The position numbers and the translations under genes were made by a program. DNA of 64,000 nt, taken from Escherichia coli O157:H7. GTDB taxonomy: Bacteria; Pseudomonadota; Gammaproteobacteria; Enterobacterales; Enterobacteriaceae. Below, in pieces: positions 17,981-26,259 of the stretch (its first letter is position 1; every line of letters begins with the position of its first letter). Under the pieces are notes generated by a model, which did not search any database, was not told the DNA's origin, and saw only the letters and a list, made by a program, of their open reading frames with translations. The stretch lies in the NCBI RefSeq assembly GCF_013167455.1, contig NZ_CP038328.1. The stretch is one strand, 5' to 3'.

Positions 17981-19090
17981 ATGAACGAACAATCCCAGGC
18001 CAAATCACCAGAAGCCTTGCGCGCAATGGTCGCCGGGACACTGGCCAATTTTCAGCACCCAACCCTGAAGCATAACCTCACCACGCTGAAAGCGTTGCAC
18101 CATGTCGCCTGGATGGACGACACGTTGCATGTGGAACTGGTTATGCCATTCGTCTGGCATAGCGCGTTTGAAGAGTTAAAAGAGCAATGTAGCGCCGAAC
18201 TGCTGCGTATCACCGGGGCGAAAGCTATCGACTGGAAACTGTCGCACAATATCGCCACCTTAAAACGCGTGAAGAATCAGCCGGGTATTAATGGCGTGAA
18301 GAACATCATTGCGGTCAGTTCCGGTAAAGGCGGCGTGGGTAAATCCTCCACGGCGGTAAACCTGGCGCTGGCACTGGCGGCGGAAGGGGCGAAAGTCGGC
18401 ATTCTGGACGCCGATATCTACGGCCCATCAATTCCCACCATGCTGGGCGCAGAAAATCAGCGTCCAACTTCGCCGGACGGTACCCATATGGCACCGATTA
18501 TGTCTCATGGCCTGGCAACCAATTCAATTGGTTATCTGGTCACTGACGACAATGCGATGGTGTGGCGTGGACCGATGGCGAGCAAGGCGTTAATGCAGAT
18601 GTTGCAGGAAACCTTGTGGCCGGATCTCGACTATCTGGTGCTTGATATGCCGCCAGGCACCGGTGACATTCAATTGACGCTGGCGCAAAACATTCCAGTA
18701 ACTGGTGCAGTCGTGGTCACCACCCCGCAGGACATCGCGTTGATCGATGCGAAAAAAGGCATTGTGATGTTCGAGAAAGTCGAGGTTCCGGTGCTCGGTA
18801 TTGTCGAGAACATGAGTGTGCATATTTGCAGTAACTGTGGTCACCATGAACCGATTTTCGGTACCGGTGGTGCAGAGAAACTGGCTGAAAAATACCATAC
18901 ACAGCTGCTGGGGCAGATGCCGTTACACATCTCCTTACGTGAGGATCTCGATAAAGGCACGCCAACGGTTATCAGCCGTCCGGAGAGCGAATTTACCGCT
19001 ATCTACCGCCAGCTGGCTGACCGCGTTGCAGCTCAGCTCTACTGGCAGGGTGAAGTCATTCCAGGCGAGATTTCCTTCCGCGCGGTCTAA
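17981..19090 (+). CDS. mrp: Fe-S cluster carrier ATPase Mrp/ApbC
   Basis: Start MNEQSQAKSPE after SD aaggag; P-loop SGKGGVGKSS; CxxC motif (CSNCGH); 369 aa; divergent from metG. Confidence 0.9.
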   Translation: MNEQSQAKSPEALRAMVAGTLANFQHPTLKHNLTTLKALHHVAWMDDTLHVELVMPFVWHSAFEELKEQCSAELLRITGAKAIDWKLSHNIATLKRVKNQPGINGVKNIIAVSSGKGGVGKSSTAVNLALALAAEGAKVGILDADIYGPSIPTMLGAENQRPTSPDGTHMAPIMSHGLATNSIGYLVTDDNAMVWRGPMASKALMQMLQETLWPDLDYLVLDMPPGTGDIQLTLAQNIPVTGAVVVTTPQDIALIDAKKGIVMFEKVEVPVLGIVENMSVHICSNCGHHEPIFGTGGAEKLAEKYHTQLLGQMPLHISLREDLDKGTPTVISRPESEFTAIYRQLADRVAAQLYWQGEVIPGEISFRAV

Positions 19091-19120
19091 CGCCTATTAA
19101 CCATTCTGGTTATTCTTCAT

Positions 19121-19161
19121 ACACCGCAGAGATGTTATATTGATGCGGTGTATTTGTTTTT
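19121..19161 (+). terminator. Intrinsic terminator downstream of mrp
   Basis: Stem acaccgca(19121-19128)/tgcggtgt(19144-19151) followed by T-run 19153-19161. Confidence 0.6.
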
Positions 19162-19351
19162 GCCGCATTAATGAACACTTATTTAATACTGCGAATATTC
19201 AGTGGATCTTAGTCCGAAACTGTACAAAGGCGATTGATTGTGCAACCACTGTCTCTTTATCATCCCTCGTGGCTGTGTAGCGGATGTACAGCTATAGTGT
19301 GTTATGCACTCAATCTACCCGGCATAACCTTTACTACAGGGATAACGTTCA

Positions 19352-19633
19352 ATGAATAAGTATTGGTTGTCAGGAGCTGTTTTTCTTGCTTATGGACTAG
19401 CATCACCCGCGTTCTCTTCTGATACTACAACATTAACCATCAATGGCAGAATTAGTTCCCCTACATGCAGTATGGATGTTGTTAATAATCATCTTCAGCA
19501 ACGTTGTGGGCAGTTGTTACAACGAGTTGAAACCAACTATCGTGCTTCTTCTACTGCAAAAGGCGTTACGACAGAAGTGGTAGCTGTGGGTAATAACGAC
19601 AAACGCAAAATCGTGTTAAATCGCTACGATTAA
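19352..19633 (+). CDS. yehE: YehE, small secreted protein upstream of the yeh fimbrial operon
   Basis: 93-aa ORF with signal peptide MNKYWLSGAVFLAYGLASPAFS; position between mrp and yehD. Confidence 0.7.
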   Translation: MNKYWLSGAVFLAYGLASPAFSSDTTTLTINGRISSPTCSMDVVNNHLQQRCGQLLQRVETNYRASSTAKGVTTEVVAVGNNDKRKIVLNRYD

Positions 19634-19924
19634 TTTGCCAACACCGTTTTAAGCATATTTAAAAAGCCAAAATCATTCCTATGAATGATTTCGGCTTTTT
19701 TATTCATCCCATAAATGTTATTTACGGTAATTTACGGTAATTAATCAGTTTCAAAAATGTTTGTTATAGCGAATTATTTGTTGTATTTATATTGCATTAG
19801 TTAATTTGTTTTAAATCAACAAAACAATATGTTTACATTGCGGCAACCTTTTTGATGTGAGAAATTTGTTTCCAAGAGATACAGACTCTTAACAAAACAA
19901 AATAAACTTATTAAGGAATGCATC

Positions 19925-20467
19925 ATGAAACATTCAATTATTGCTGTCGCTGTCTTATCTTCTGTATTTATGAGTGCTGGTATTTTCGCTGCTGAAGTAG
20001 ATACCGGAACTTTAACCATTAAAGGTAATATTGCAGAATCACCATGTACATTTGTCGCTGGCGGTGATTCAGTCAGTATTAATATGCCGACTGTACCCAC
20101 CACTGTATTTGATGGTAAAGCGAAATATTCAACTTATGATGGCGCGGTTGGTGTAACCAGCAGTATGCTGAAAATTACTTGTCCGAAGACTATTGATGGC
20201 GTAAAACTTTCGTTGATCACCAACGAGAAAATTCTTGGTAATGATAAGGCAATATCCAGTAGTAATGACACAGTTGGATACTATCTCTATTTGGGAGATA
20301 GCAGTGACGTACTGGATATTTCCGCACCATTTAATATTGAAAGTTATAAAACTGCTGATGGACAATATGCAATACCGTTTAAGGCAAAATATCTGAAGTT
20401 GACTGACAGTGGTGTTGCATCTGGTACAGTTAACTCTTCATTGGTTATGCGTGTTGCCCAGGATTAA
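19925..20467 (+). CDS. yehD: Fimbrial major subunit YehD
   Basis: 180-aa ORF, signal peptide ending FA|AEV, type-1-fimbrial-subunit-like; first gene of a chaperone-usher cluster; SD aaggaa. Confidence 0.85.
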   Translation: MKHSIIAVAVLSSVFMSAGIFAAEVDTGTLTIKGNIAESPCTFVAGGDSVSINMPTVPTTVFDGKAKYSTYDGAVGVTSSMLKITCPKTIDGVKLSLITNEKILGNDKAISSSNDTVGYYLYLGDSSDVLDISAPFNIESYKTADGQYAIPFKAKYLKLTDSGVASGTVNSSLVMRVAQD

Positions 20468-20507
20468 ATATTTAAAATAATCATCTTGTTTTTTCAGTAA
20501 GTTAAAA

Positions 20508-20531
20508 TGGCCGCCATATTCATGGCGGCCA
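20508..20531 (+). promoter_or_regulatory. Perfect 10-bp-stem hairpin between yehD and yehC (no U-run)
   Basis: tggccgccat / attc / atggcggcca; position typical of the stem-loops that set subunit-to-assembly-gene stoichiometry in fimbrial operons. Confidence 0.4.
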
Positions 20532-20554
20532 GCATAAATATAAGAGGCATTAAG

Positions 20555-21229
20555 ATGAAAGGGTTATTATCTTTACTCATCTCTTCTATGATATTCCCCG
20601 TGCATGCCGGAATGGTTATTTTCGGGACCCGTATCATTTACCCGGCAGAGCAGAAAGAGGTCATGGTACAACTGATGAATCAGGGAAACCGCTCTTCGCT
20701 GATGCAGGCGTGGATTGATGATGGCGACACGTCTCTGCCGCCAGAAAAGATTCAGGTTCCTTTCATGTTAACGCCACCAGTAGTGAAAGTAGCGGCCAAT
20801 TCTGGGCAACAAATAAAAATTAAAATCATGCCTAATAAATTACCCAGTAATAAGGAAAGTATTTTTTATCTTAATGTTCTGGATATTCCACCGAATAGCC
20901 CAGAAGATGAAGGAAAGAATGCGTTAAAATTTGCCATGCAAAACAGAATCAAGTTGTTTTACCGACCTGCTGGTATTGCTCCGGTAAATAAAACGACTTT
21001 TAAAAAATTACGAGTGAGTCGTAGCGGTAATAACGTAGTCATAAAAAATGACTCGCCAAATTGGGTAACGATTTCTGATGTTAAGGCTAATAACGTCAAA
21101 GTGAATTATGAAACAATCATGATTGCACCACAAGAAAGTCAGAATGTTAGTGAAAAAAATAATAATGCGAATGGCTGGCAACTGACCATTATCGATGATC
21201 ACGGCAACTATATTAGTGACAAAATTTAA
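20555..21229 (+). CDS. yehC: Periplasmic fimbrial chaperone YehC
   Basis: Start MKGLLSLLISSMIFPVHA after SD aagagg; an upstream in-frame ATG at 20507 would sit inside the hairpin. PapD-like chaperone. Confidence 0.8.
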   Translation: MKGLLSLLISSMIFPVHAGMVIFGTRIIYPAEQKEVMVQLMNQGNRSSLMQAWIDDGDTSLPPEKIQVPFMLTPPVVKVAANSGQQIKIKIMPNKLPSNKESIFYLNVLDIPPNSPEDEGKNALKFAMQNRIKLFYRPAGIAPVNKTTFKKLRVSRSGNNVVIKNDSPNWVTISDVKANNVKVNYETIMIAPQESQNVSEKNNNANGWQLTIIDDHGNYISDKI

Positions 21230-21244
21230 TTGCAGGAGCTGCCT

Positions 21245-23725
21245 ATGTTGAGAATGACCCCGCTTGCATCAGCAATAGTCGCGTTATTGCTCGGCATTGA
21301 AGCACATGCAGCAGAAGAAACCTTTGACACCCATTTTATGATGGGAGGAATGAAAGGTGAGCAAGTAACAAATTTGCGTCTTGATGATAATCAGCCTTTA
21401 CCTGGGCAGTACGACATTGATATTTATGTCAATAAACAATGGCGTGGAAAATATGAGATTATCGTCAAAGATAACCCACATGAAACTTGCCTGACGCGTG
21501 AAATTGTAAAGCGGTTAGGTATAAATAGCGATAATTTTGCACGCGAAAATCAGTGTTTAACATTTGAGCAACTTGTTCAGGGCGGAAGCTACTCCTGGGA
21601 TATTGGGATTTTTCGTTTGGATCTCGCTGTTCCGCAAGCCTGGGTTGAAGAGCTGGAAAATGGTTACGTTCCGCCAGAAAACTGGGAGCGGGGAATCAAT
21701 GCGTTTTATACGTCTTATTACGTAAGTCAGTATTACAGTGACTATAAAGCCTCGGGCAATAGTAAGAGCACTTATGTGCGTTTTAACAGTGGGCTAAATT
21801 TGCTGGGATGGCAGCTGCATTCAGATGCCAGTTTTAGCAAAACGGATAATAATCCTGGTGAGTGGAAAAGCAACACGCTGTATCTGGAGCATGGATTTTC
21901 TCAAATTCTCGGTACGCTGCGTATTGGTGATATGTACACCTCAGCCGATATATTTGATTCCGTTCGCTTCACCGGGGTTCGGTTATTTCGTGATATGCAG
22001 ATGTTGCCAAACTCGAAGCAAAATTTTACCCCACGGGTACAGGGGATTGCCCAGAGTAACGCGTTGGTAACTATTGAACAGAACGGTTTTGTCGTTTATC
22101 AGAAAGAGGTTCCACCAGGTCCGTTTTCGATTAGTGATTTGCAGTTAGCGGGCGGAGGGGCGGATCTTGATGTTAGTGTTAAGGAAGCCGATGGTTCTGT
22201 GACTACGTATCTGGTGCCTTATGCGGCAGTACCTAATATGCTGCAACCTGGTGTATCAAAATATGATTTTGCGGCAGGCCGTAGTCATATTGAAGGTGCG
22301 AGCAAGCAAAGTGATTTTGTCCAGGCGGGTTATCAGTATGGTTTTAATAATTTATTGACGCTGTATGGCGGCACGATGGTTGCTAATAATTACTATGCCT
22401 TTACCCTCGGAACAGGTTGGAACACGCGTATTGGCGCAATTTCAGTCGATGCAACTAAATCGCACAGTAAGCAAGACAATGGTGATGTGTTTGACGGACA
22501 AAGTTATCAAATTGCCTATAACAAATTTTTGAGCCAAACATCAACACGTTTTGGTCTGGCGGCCTGGCGTTATTCGTCGCGTGATTACCGCACATTTAAC
22601 GATTATGTGTGGGCAAATAATAAAGATAATTATCGTCGTGATAAAAACGATGTCTATGATATTGCCGATTATTACCAGAATGATTTTGGTCGCAAAAATA
22701 GCTTTTCCGCCAATATGAGTCAGTCATTGCCAGAAGGCTGGGGATCTGTGTCATTAAGTACTTTATGGCGTGATTACTGGGGGCGAAGCGGCAGTAGTAA
22801 AGATTATCAACTGAGTTATTCCAATAACTGGCGGCGGATAAGCTATACCCTCGCGGCAAGCCAGGCGTATGACGAGAACCACGCCGAAGAGAAACGCTTT
22901 AATATTTTTATATCGATTCCCTTTGACTGGGGCGATGACGTTACGACGCCGCGACGGCAAATATATATGTCTAACTCAACGACCTTTGATGATCAGGGTT
23001 TTGCTTCAAACAATACCGGATTATCGGGAACCGTTGGGAACCGCGATCAGTTTAACTATGGTATCAACTTGAGCCATCAACATCAGGGAAATGAAACGAC
23101 AGCTGGGGCCAATTTGACCTGGACCGCACCGGCCGCAACAGTGAATGGCAGCTATAGTCAGTCGAGTACTTATCGACAGGTCGGAGCCAGTGTTTCAGGG
23201 GGACTGGTTGCCTGGTCTGGTGGCGTTAATCTGGCGAACCGTCTTTCCGAAACGTTTGCTGTGATGCATGCGCCGGGAATCAAAGATGCTTATGTCAATG
23301 GGCAAAAATATCGTACAACAAACTGTAATGGTGTGGTGGTGTACGACGGACTGACACCTTATCGGGAAAATCACCTGATGATGGATGTGTCGCAAAGCGA
23401 TAGCGAAACAGAATTACGCGGGAACCGTAAAATGACCGCCCCTTATCGCGGCGCGGTCGTTCTGGTTGATTTTGATACCGATCAGCGTAAGCCCTGGTTT
23501 ATAAAAGCATTAAGATCCGATGGACAGCCATTAACGTTTGGTTATGAAGTCAATGATATGCATGGTCATAACATTGGTGTTGTCGGCCAGGGCAGTCAGA
23601 TATTTATTCGCACCAATGAAATACCGCCAGCGGTTAATGTGGCAATTGATAAGCAACAAGGGCTTTCATGCACAATCACCTTCGGTAAAGAGATTGATGA
23701 AAGTAAAAATTATATCTGTCGGTGA
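21245..23725 (+). CDS. yehB: Outer-membrane fimbrial usher YehB
   Basis: Start MLRMTPLASAIVALLLGIEAHA (SD caggag); 826 aa. Confidence 0.85.
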   Translation: MLRMTPLASAIVALLLGIEAHAAEETFDTHFMMGGMKGEQVTNLRLDDNQPLPGQYDIDIYVNKQWRGKYEIIVKDNPHETCLTREIVKRLGINSDNFARENQCLTFEQLVQGGSYSWDIGIFRLDLAVPQAWVEELENGYVPPENWERGINAFYTSYYVSQYYSDYKASGNSKSTYVRFNSGLNLLGWQLHSDASFSKTDNNPGEWKSNTLYLEHGFSQILGTLRIGDMYTSADIFDSVRFTGVRLFRDMQMLPNSKQNFTPRVQGIAQSNALVTIEQNGFVVYQKEVPPGPFSISDLQLAGGGADLDVSVKEADGSVTTYLVPYAAVPNMLQPGVSKYDFAAGRSHIEGASKQSDFVQAGYQYGFNNLLTLYGGTMVANNYYAFTLGTGWNTRIGAISVDATKSHSKQDNGDVFDGQSYQIAYNKFLSQTSTRFGLAAWRYSSRDYRTFNDYVWANNKDNYRRDKNDVYDIADYYQNDFGRKNSFSANMSQSLPEGWGSVSLSTLWRDYWGRSGSSKDYQLSYSNNWRRISYTLAASQAYDENHAEEKRFNIFISIPFDWGDDVTTPRRQIYMSNSTTFDDQGFASNNTGLSGTVGNRDQFNYGINLSHQHQGNETTAGANLTWTAPAATVNGSYSQSSTYRQVGASVSGGLVAWSGGVNLANRLSETFAVMHAPGIKDAYVNGQKYRTTNCNGVVVYDGLTPYRENHLMMDVSQSDSETELRGNRKMTAPYRGAVVLVDFDTDQRKPWFIKALRSDGQPLTFGYEVNDMHGHNIGVVGQGSQIFIRTNEIPPAVNVAIDKQQGLSCTITFGKEIDESKNYICR

Positions 23726-23735
23726 GAGGTGAAAT

Positions 23736-24770
23736 ATGATGTTCAGAAATAGAATATTACTAATATTTATATTGTGGGCTAATTTTACCTGGGCTGGGTG
23801 TCGTACTACTGCATCATTAAATATTACAGATGGTATTAATGTTGGGGAGATTTTAGCGAATGAAACTTCCTTTAGTAAAAGTGTCGTGTTTACTGGGATA
23901 TCTTGTGATACGAGCACGGATAAAATAGTTTATAAAAATATCCAAAGTGATTGGGTTGAAGTTGGGCCTTTTGGTAATGGCGAAAAATTAAAGGTTAAAA
24001 TAGAGTCTTTAGGTAAAACCAGCGACACAATTGGGAAATCCAGCAATGCGCAGGCAGTATTACCTTATGTGGTTAAAATAGCCAGAGGCACACCTGATTT
24101 TACTGGAGAAAGAAAATCTACCTGGTTTATTTCAGATACCGTGATTGCAAATATTGGCGGTGAGTCATCGTCATCCATCGATTTTTGGTTGGGTATTTGT
24201 AAGGCATTGAAGTTTAACTGGTGTGTGAATTATCTCACCAGCAAACTGGCGGGGGATACATTTACGCTTGGGTTAAATATTTCCTATTATCCTAAAAATA
24301 CGACCTGTAAGCCTGAAAACACCGTTATAAAAGTAGATGATATCGCCTTGTTCCAGCTCAGAAATCAGGGAAAGATTGCGGCGAACAGTAAGGAAGGAAC
24401 AATTACGTTGAAATGTGATAATCTTTTCGGCGACAAAAAACAAGCATCGCGGAATATGGTTGTATATCTTTCTAGCAGTGACTTAGTTAAAGGAAGTAAT
24501 ACTATTTTGCGTGGTAAAACAGATAATGGTGTAGGGTTTGTGTTGGATCTAACAGAACCACCAAAAGGGACTGAGGCTGCCATTAAAATTTCGGCCAACG
24601 GCGATCAGGGCGCGGCGACATCATTATGGAAAACAGATAAACCAGGAGTTTCATTAAATAGCAACATTATTAATATACCAGTCATGGCCAGTTACTATGT
24701 ATATGATGAAAAAAAAGTTAAATCTGGCGCACTGGAAGCAACCGCATTAATCAACGTGAAATACGATTAA
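23736..24770 (+). CDS. yehA: Fimbrial adhesin-like protein YehA
   Basis: 344-aa ORF with signal peptide, last gene of the cluster. Confidence 0.8.
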   Translation: MMFRNRILLIFILWANFTWAGCRTTASLNITDGINVGEILANETSFSKSVVFTGISCDTSTDKIVYKNIQSDWVEVGPFGNGEKLKVKIESLGKTSDTIGKSSNAQAVLPYVVKIARGTPDFTGERKSTWFISDTVIANIGGESSSSIDFWLGICKALKFNWCVNYLTSKLAGDTFTLGLNISYYPKNTTCKPENTVIKVDDIALFQLRNQGKIAANSKEGTITLKCDNLFGDKKQASRNMVVYLSSSDLVKGSNTILRGKTDNGVGFVLDLTEPPKGTEAAIKISANGDQGAATSLWKTDKPGVSLNSNIINIPVMASYYVYDEKKVKSGALEATALINVKYD

Positions 24771-24826
24771 TAACAAGCAAGATGAGCAAGTGGCTAATAA
24801 TAAGAAATAATAAGGTGTCTGCATTT

Positions 24827-24853
24827 CCCCCTCTCTCCGAGGGGGCTTTTTTT
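24827..24853. terminator. Intrinsic terminator between convergent yehA and rcnB
   Basis: Stem ccccctc(24827-24833)/gaggggg(24839-24845), T-run 24847-24853, A-rich on the other side. Confidence 0.6.
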
Positions 24854-25190
24854 AGCGATGATAAAAAATCTCACCGTCGTAGGCTTTAATGATTTTACCG
24901 TCGGTGTCGCTGATCAACACGTACGCGCCACCCATATAGGTCCAGTGCGTCCCGGCATCCGGCGCGGGCAGGTTACGCAACTGCCACTGCTTAATGTTGT
25001 ACTCATCGGTACGGTACATCTCTGGTACGGTGTCCCCTGGTTTGTAATGCTTAAAGTCAGCAATGAAACTGCTTAACTCATACTTAGAAATTCCCGAGGT
25101 ATTGGTCGAACCCGCGGTGGCTGGTGCGGCCCAGGCGGCACTGGTAACCAGCAAAAGCGCACCCAGCAACATCTTATTTTTAATGGTCAT
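24852..25190 (-). CDS. rcnB: Periplasmic Ni/Co homeostasis protein RcnB
   Basis: Start MTIKNKMLLGALLLVTSAAWA (ATG 25190); 112 aa; downstream of rcnA. Confidence 0.8.
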   Translation of the reverse strand: MTIKNKMLLGALLLVTSAAWAAPATAGSTNTSGISKYELSSFIADFKHYKPGDTVPEMYRTDEYNIKQWQLRNLPAPDAGTHWTYMGGAYVLISDTDGKIIKAYDGEIFYHR

Positions 25191-25407
25191 AAACTCTCCA
25201 CTTTGGGGATCTGTAATATCAGTCGCATATCTTTCCTGCCATACAATATAACTGACAAGCGATATTTTGTTAGTGATCCCATGATTTCGTAAAAAGTGTA
25301 AATGAAAGGATGTAGCAAAAGCATCCTCATTGAGCGAGAAGTGAGCGGAATAAGCTGATTTAAGAATCATCCTGGGCTAAAAGGATAGCGAAGCCCAGGT
25401 GATTGTT

Positions 25408-26259
<852 letters not shown>

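Follow-up and report, generated by a model that had tools for sequence, protein, structure and literature searches.

An intercistronic stem-loop between the major pilin and chaperone genes of the Escherichia coli O157:H7 yeh fimbrial operon, conserved across alleles with and without a U-tract

The DNA analyzed here is a stretch of 64,000 nucleotides from Escherichia coli O157:H7 (contig NZ_CP038328.1), referred to below as the window, in which the yeh genes all lie on the plus strand, flanked by apbC/mrp and rcnB. The yeh operon corresponds to EHEC fimbrial locus 9 (Z3276-Z3279), of the gamma4 class, with yehD being Z3279 (PMC11287998). An earlier note on this DNA, made from the sequence alone, had placed a perfect stem-loop between yehD and yehC, and both the gene names and the position of the hairpin given there are correct. 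The features of the locus, in order along the window, are the following.

19352-19633, plus strand: yehE.
19925-20467, plus strand: yehD, the major fimbrial subunit gene, O157-type allele (open reading frame; PGAP "fimbrial protein" on a 100% identical record).
20502-20507, plus strand: TTAAAA tract abutting the 5' side of the stem, which reads on the minus strand as a UUUUAA tail after the hairpin.
20507-20509, plus strand: upstream in-frame ATG, overlapping the first two stem bases and equivalent to the K-12 reference start of yehC; probably unused.
20508-20531, plus strand: perfect RNA hairpin in the yehD-yehC spacer (from sequence, folding and RNAalifold).
20522-20524, plus strand: second in-frame ATG, opening the 3' arm of the hairpin; probably unused.
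20532-20541, plus strand: tail GCATAAATAT, AU-rich, predicted to be single-stranded and without a U-run; its K-12-type counterpart is TTTTAATTT.
20542-20547, plus strand: Shine-Dalgarno (SD) sequence AAGAGG of yehC, 7 nt 5' of the ATG at 20555 and 10 nt 3' of the hairpin.
20555-21229, plus strand: yehC, the periplasmic chaperone gene, 224 aa (PGAP start on an identical record).
21245-23725, plus strand: yehB, the usher gene (PGAP annotation of an identical record).
23736-24770, plus strand: yehA, coding for an adhesin-like subunit (PGAP annotation of an identical record).

The hairpin is composed of a 5' arm TGGCCGCCAT (20508-20517), the loop ATTC (20518-20521) and a 3' arm ATGGCGGCCA (20522-20531), giving 10 pairs without a mismatch, among them 7 G-C pairs, around a loop of 4 nt, and the description of a perfect 10-bp inverted repeat in the earlier note is thus exact. 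It begins 40 nt past the yehD stop codon and ends 10 nt short of the yehC SD and 23 nt short of the yehC ATG at 20555. The sequence 3' of the stem is GCAUAAAUAU, in which the U-run is absent, again as had been stated. The isolated hairpin has a folding energy of -18.6 kcal/mol and the 93-nt intergenic context reaches -29.3 kcal/mol (z = -5.25), a fold equaled by none of 200 shuffles. Only two perfect hairpins in the 64-kb window combine a stem of 10 bp or more with a 3-8 nt loop, the other one being all A/T, against 0.45 +/- 0.78 in dinucleotide shuffles of the window. The yehD-yehC hairpin, in short, is not a product of chance. Its pattern has a single match in the window, even when 3 mismatches are allowed, and the yehD-yehC intergenic region is found in one copy per genome. 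A REP/BIME or other mobile element was discarded for a hairpin that is single-copy and has no dispersed copies with the REP consensus, and a permissive E-value scan of 18500-25500 with the Rfam covariance models returned chance-level matches only (E >= 2, far below gathering scores).

Two further candidates around the spacer were also rejected. In the minimum free energy fold of the O157 sequence, AUCAUCUU (approximately 20481-20488; UCAUCUU) pairs with AAGAUGA (20552-20558) over the yehC start codon, enclosing the hairpin. This long-range helix is absent from every other Escherichia allele and from the RNAalifold consensus and, being specific to the O157 sequence, it was therefore rejected as a translational occluder. 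A promoter-like site, TTGCCC-16-AATAAT at 20454-20481, which would put the hairpin in a 5' untranslated region, agrees at 9 of 12 positions, is no commoner than in shuffles and is not conserved in K-12.

The observation that an in-frame ATG lies inside the hairpin holds, two such codons in fact touching it, and the ambiguity in the yehC start that had been drawn from it can be settled. The ATG at 20555 is the sole candidate with an SD and the sole start kept in all relatives. The ATG at 20507 lacks an SD and is replaced by CTG in E. whittamii and by TTG in E. albertii; no in-frame start codon of any kind occurs in the upstream yehC extension of E. coli E69 and SCPM, and in the Salmonella and Citrobacter relatives the reading frame is interrupted by stop codons 1-11 codons upstream. 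The ATG at 20522 has no SD either, is CTG in E. albertii and is buried in the stem. The crystallised mature FimC provides a further reference point, with its residue 1 aligning to Gly19 of the 224-aa YehC (Gly35 of the long form): translation from 20555 yields a normal signal peptide of 18 residues, MKGLLSLLISSMIFPVHA, and the long form would need one of 34. Both upstream codons were rejected on SD, conservation and signal-peptide length, and by these comparisons the translation start of yehC resolves to the ATG at 20555. In MG1655, yehC (b2110; NC_000913.3, 2190926-2191645) is annotated from the upstream ATG as a protein of 239 aa, with the hairpin and its U-tract falling within the coding sequence. 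Since the upstream start is not conserved and lacks an SD, the reference K-12 annotation (b2110, UniProt YehC) is probably 15 codons too long at the N-terminus, concealing the element in a coding sequence.

Several other inverted repeats are present in the window. Approximately 30 nt past the yehE stop codon (19633), at 19661-19700, lies an 18-bp inverted repeat, AAAAAGCCAAAATCATTC / GAATGATTTCGGCTTTTT, 94% complementary and with a 4-nt gap, which is flanked by an A-tract and, on its opposite side, by a T-tract, and hence resembles an intrinsic terminator working in both directions between yehE and yehD. At 24827-24845, between the convergent yehA and rcnB genes, a terminator-like hairpin CCCCCTCTCTCCGAGGGGG is followed by CTTTTTTT and is probably the real terminator of the yeh operon. 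Finally, two near-identical perfect 9-bp hairpins, AAGGGGGAAAACCGCTTCCCCCTT (4153-4176) and AAGGGGGAATACCGTTTCCCCCTT (4762-4785), lie 609 nt apart and may represent a repeated terminator or a repeat unit.

The window carries the O157-type yeh allele, and its spacer matches without a difference that of O157:H7 strains, EDL933 among them. Among 5426 complete E. coli genomes, the O157-type spacer was found in 368 and the K-12-type in 4906, and spacers with 95-99% identity occur in eight E. coli genomes lying outside the comparison set. Across yehEDCBA (approximately 19100-24810), identity to K-12 ranges from 72 to 93% between yehE and yehB and drops below 50% in yehA, as against 97-100% in the flanks; at 4-fold degenerate sites, the identity between the two types is 0.48 in yehD and 0.53 in yehC. 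The divergent yeh locus is an old allelic replacement, common to E. albertii, E. whittamii and cryptic-clade sequences. The K-12-type spacer contains an orthologous hairpin, GGCCGCUAU-CCC(C)-AUGGCGGCC, located at the same position, with the same SD, 9 of 10 stem pairs shared and 22-23 nt between hairpin and start codon. In contrast to the O157-type hairpin, whose stem is closed by an additional U-A pair, whose loop measures 4 nt and which lacks a U-tract, it is followed by the canonical U-tract UUUUAAUUU. An A-rich tract 5' of the stem is found in all four O157-type lineages and also in the K-12-type (AAUAAACAU). Two rearranged loci were noted along the way. O157:H7 TR01 (NZ_CP033605.1, 2862734-2863118) is a recombinant, of O157-type in yehD and in the spacer's first half and of K-12-type, hairpin and U-tract included, from the hairpin on, the junction falling at the hairpin. 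In E. coli DETEC-P61 (NZ_CP116152.1, 1635375-1635615), an IS1A lies inside the 5' arm of a K-12-type hairpin, after GGCCG, and splits yehD from yehC.

Conservation of the stem was analyzed in an alignment of seven Escherichia sequences (O157, E. whittamii, Escherichia sp. MOD1, E. albertii, K-12, E69 and SCPM). In these, 97% of stem cells are paired, compared with 14-61% when the partners are slid, and RNAalifold predicts the yehD-yehC helix and nothing else. Two pairs have been altered on both sides: E. whittamii and E. albertii have A-U in place of one G-C pair, and in MOD1 the double change affects another pair. Between-allele identity is 0.80 in the stem columns and falls to 0.48 in the upstream spacer, 0.33 in the loop and 0.41 in the tail; the segment from SD to ATG, at 0.96, is the sole one above the stem. 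Owing to these compensatory changes, and to an identity of 0.80 beside 0.33-0.48 in the flanks, the aligned alleles show the stem to be under selection. A scan of metagenomes for O157-type variants recovered four contigs, all of them identical to the window and hence adding no covariation information.

The strand on which the stem acts is addressed by its G.U pairs. A U.G pair occupies one stem position in all K-12-type sequences, and O104:H4 and TR01 have a G.U pair at the outermost stem position; the sister operon family shows 9 G.U cells, against 2 that are compatible with pairing in the antisense RNA alone. Such pairs favor the sense strand because they become A.C mismatches in an antisense RNA, and they therefore hint at a sense RNA in the K-12-type alleles and in the sister family. 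The covariation of that family is not significant against shuffles (171/500). In the O157-type group, every stem change is strand-symmetric and there are no strand-diagnostic G.U pairs, so that for these sequences an antisense RNA or a role at the DNA level fits equally well. A comparison of sense and antisense folding energies over 29 loci, which are not independent of one another, favors the sense strand in 19 against 9 (p = 0.06), and is only suggestive.

The capacity of the hairpin to terminate transcription was scored on both strands with the formula of d'Aubenton Carafa et al. (1990), combined with modern energy parameters, the resulting d-scores being a relative index only. On this index, three K-12-type sequences score +3 to +16 in the sense direction (K-12, +14.7) and the four O157-type lineages -37 to -44 (window, -37.4). 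The antisense scores show the reverse, at -35 to -40 for the K-12-type and +19, +4, +26 and +14 for the O157-type lineages (window, +19.3), the latter being positive because UUAAAA precedes the stem. The 8-nt sense tail of the window, GCAUAAAU, holds two U, neither of them proximal (T-score 0.25). Congruently, a scan for consensus terminators flagged the minus strand only, as TGGCCGCCATGAATATGGCGGCCA followed by TTTTAACTTA, and reported nothing on the sense strand. The sense strand thus presents the G+C-rich stem of at least 5 bp and the 3-8 nt loop of an intrinsic terminator but no U-tract within 0-2 nt, whereas the antisense strand presents stem and U-tract but no known transcription unit to terminate. 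In the wider family, 9 of 27 loci score as sense terminators, several more are borderline and many sense tails are U-rich. From its sequence, the K-12-type hairpin should be a leaky intrinsic sense terminator.

Published work bears on what happens at this spacer in O157. The yeh locus has been found by RT-PCR to be a single transcript in EHEC 86-24 (PMC11287998), and a single PtetA promoter placed before ECs2914-2918 leads to surface Yeh fimbriae (PMC7098969). Both results show that at least some read-through past the hairpin occurs in O157, and efficient termination by the O157-type hairpin is unlikely. A search of the literature on yehD/yehC terminators, 3' ends, sRNAs and locus tags returned nothing direct, Term-seq or decay measurements on yeh included; a riboswitch-entropy paper that touches on the locus concerns the region upstream of yehD and not the yehD-yehC spacer (PMC4448311), and the K-12 yeh operon has been placed within a statically silenced chromatin domain (PMC12266141).

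Hairpins at this position are a general feature of related operons. With YehC as the query, 29 enterobacterial loci were recovered from Escherichia, Salmonella, Citrobacter, Klebsiella, Superficieibacter and several metagenome-assembled genomes, and all 29 present a G+C-rich hairpin between a pilin-sized open reading frame and the chaperone start (-12.5 to -22 kcal/mol; median z of spacer folding across the relatives' loci, -3.4). Their stem sequences are unrelated (ACCGGCAG..., GCCGGTGG..., TCGGCGGC...). In K-12 itself, strong hairpins are found at the equivalent position in elfA-elfD, yraH-yraI and yadN-yadV, and fimA-fimI also has a hairpin there, located within the sRNA FimR2. Given this distribution throughout the relatives and the K-12 fimbrial operons, the element belongs to a known and widespread design: the yehD-yehC hairpin is an ordinary intercistronic stem-loop of fimbrial operons that, in the O157-type, comes without the U-run. 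The analogy drawn in the earlier note with mRNA-stabilising or attenuating structures of chaperone-usher operons accordingly gains from the selection on the stem, the 29 relatives and the K-12 operons. Its attenuating half fares worse, efficient attenuation being unlikely in the O157-type because the U-tract of the K-12-type is absent and read-through is documented.

Taking these results into account, it seems reasonable to propose, at about even confidence, that the hairpin works in the sense-strand mRNA, where it would protect the 3' end of the yehD message and thereby raise pilin relative to the assembly genes, acting in the O157-type as an exonuclease barrier rather than as an efficient terminator. 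Lying just past the major-pilin gene, the hairpin would uncouple the expression of yehD from that of the genes for chaperone, usher and adhesin. In the K-12-type, stem and U-tract together would bring about leaky intrinsic termination. In the O157-type, RNA polymerase would mostly pass the hairpin, since the U-tract is missing; an endonuclease would then cut the AU-rich RNA downstream, and the stem, assuming that it forms in vivo, would stall 3'-to-5' exonucleases (PNPase, RNase II). What would remain is a stable yehD-only message, more abundant or longer-lived than that of yehCBA, and hence far more pilin than assembly machinery, in a scheme of selective processing and stabilisation such as that of malE-malF and the papA mRNA 3' end. 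The genes yehB and yehA would be those whose dosage relative to yehD the hairpin sets.

Two features expected of a 3' protective hairpin are found here, namely a stable stem-loop 3' of a cistron needed in excess and its conservation by selection. Moreover, the 40 nt between the yehD stop codon and the hairpin should keep the latter clear of ribosomes terminating there. An RNase E-like RN|WUU motif (GC|AUU, 20547-20551) is also present, in a pattern too degenerate to count as evidence. A fimbrial operon of this kind faces a demand of approximately 1000 pilins per assembly protein, and the hairpin is an obvious candidate for meeting it in yeh. Yeh fimbriae contribute to colonisation and virulence-gene expression in EHEC O157:H7 (PMC11287998), and the two alleles, with near-identical stems that either have or lack the U-tract, could serve to separate termination from RNA stabilisation.

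A first alternative is that the O157-type hairpin acts, despite its poor U-tract, as a residual leaky sense terminator or attenuator, so that yehCBA would be transcribed less than yehD, in the way presumed for the K-12 allele. In the K-12-type, carried by 4906 genomes, this stem has UUUUAAUUU after it and scores positively as a terminator, as do 9 of 27 loci in the family, and RT-PCR and fimbriation prove only that some read-through takes place. Efficient intrinsic termination in E. coli, however, needs a proximal U-tract, and the tail GCAUAAAU offers two U, neither of them proximal, a T-score of 0.25 and a d-score of -37.4. This U-less tail is common to four deeply diverged lineages and would hence represent a stable state rather than recent decay, which makes residual sense termination an unlikely account of the O157-type element. 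A difficulty for the exonuclease barrier is the conserved O157-type A-tract 5' of the stem, for which a pure barrier would have no need and which makes the element a good antisense terminator. The O157-type element might be an intrinsic terminator for antisense transcripts arising in the AT-rich yehC/yehB, shielding yehD and its promoter from transcriptional interference. The minus-strand-only scan result, the O157-type antisense d-scores of +4 to +26 against sense scores of -37 to -44, the opposite polarity of the K-12-type and the strand-symmetric O157-type stem changes would all agree with it. Yet neither a gene nor a known transcript occupies the minus strand here, where the closest gene on that strand is rcnB, 4.3 kb away, and promoter-like minus-strand sites in yehC/yehB number 14, against 17.7 expected from shuffles. 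The A-rich tract, moreover, is present in the K-12-type as well (AAUAAACAU) and may for that reason be mere ancestral AT-rich spacer, the dichotomy in polarity comes from only two independent clades, and the G.U pairs of the K-12-type and sister families favor the sense strand. We consider antisense termination quite unlikely on this evidence, and extend a similarly low probability to a broader proposal, in which the yeh alleles constitute a natural polarity switch: a sense terminator in the K-12-type and, in the O157-type lineage (O157:H7, E. albertii, E. whittamii and a cryptic clade), a U-less element that would perhaps be a dedicated antisense terminator or insulator, or the source of a FimR2-like RNA. 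If such a switch were true, the O157 lineage would have rewired the manner and level of expression of Yeh and possibly of other genes.

That the hairpin is the core of a FimR2-like sRNA, intercistronic or derived from the 3' untranslated region and with targets elsewhere, appears very unlikely. The equivalent fimA-fimI spacer does encode FimR2 (PMC9723502), likewise with a hairpin without U-tract, deletion of the whole yeh locus alters the expression of 130 EHEC genes (PMC11287998), and AU-rich single-stranded flanks on either side of the stem, together with a location after the major subunit gene, would suit an sRNA. Nevertheless, no GGA is found in the loop AUUC or anywhere in 20468-20554, so that the CsrA-binding feature of FimR2 is missing; loop and flanks, with identities of 0.33-0.48, are poorly conserved, which disfavors a conserved seed; Rfam gives no match and no sRNA at yehD has been reported in the literature; and the phenotype of the yeh deletion is more simply explained by the loss of fimbriae. 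Slighter still is the probability of a DNA-level palindrome, acting as a protein site or recombination hotspot, or of a functionless relic of the K-12-type terminator, even though the 24-bp palindrome is perfect, the TR01 recombination junction falls at the hairpin and an IS1 is inserted within the stem in one strain. The relatives keep a stem with unrelated sequences, as would be expected of RNA pairing and not of a protein recognition sequence, and both compensatory double changes and G.U intermediates are seen. A neutral relic is ruled out by a stem identity of 0.80 where silent sites reach approximately 0.5, and a single-copy element is neither a REP nor a MITE.

Protection of the yehD message by a sense-strand hairpin, the reading we prefer, has known parallels. 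Stem-loops between cistrons, downstream of a pilin gene, have been familiar ever since pap was studied in the 1980s (Baga et al. 1988). The papA mRNA has an RNase-resistant structure at its 3' end, and intergenic 3' protective structures have been described more generally (PMC5927463). Like the yeh hairpin, the papA stem-loop is stable and lies directly 3' of the major-pilin gene and 5' of genes for minor subunits and assembly, and it gives both an RNase-resistant 3' end and a high ratio of pilin to assembly proteins (PMC5927463). It differs in that it has been described as a terminator, whereas the yeh hairpin has no U-tract and shares no sequence homology with it. The malE-malF element offers a parallel in mechanism, in which an intergenic stem-loop shields the more-needed upstream cistron from 3'-to-5' exonucleases after a downstream endonucleolytic cut (PMC5927463); the mal element, however, consists of REP repeats, present many times per genome, and the yeh hairpin is single-copy and operon-specific.

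The closest counterpart in position is found in the fim operon. FimR2 (b4838) is an annotated non-coding RNA in the MG1655 fimA-fimI spacer (4543674-4543708), where the hairpin likewise has no U-tract, and it has been described as a 35-nt sRNA that RNase E releases from the fim transcript and that depends on its stem-loop for stability (PMC9723502). FimR2 therefore shows that at least one intercistronic hairpin of a pilin gene has a trans-acting role. Both elements are intercistronic hairpins right after the major subunit gene, without U-tract and with single-stranded flanks open to cleavage by RNase E, but FimR2 combines two CsrA-binding GGA motifs with a weak 5-bp stem, whereas the yeh hairpin has a 10-bp stem and no GGA. 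In this company, the yehD-yehC hairpin is a real, selected element of a long-known kind, set apart by the fact that the O157-type allele has lost the U-tract and kept the stem.
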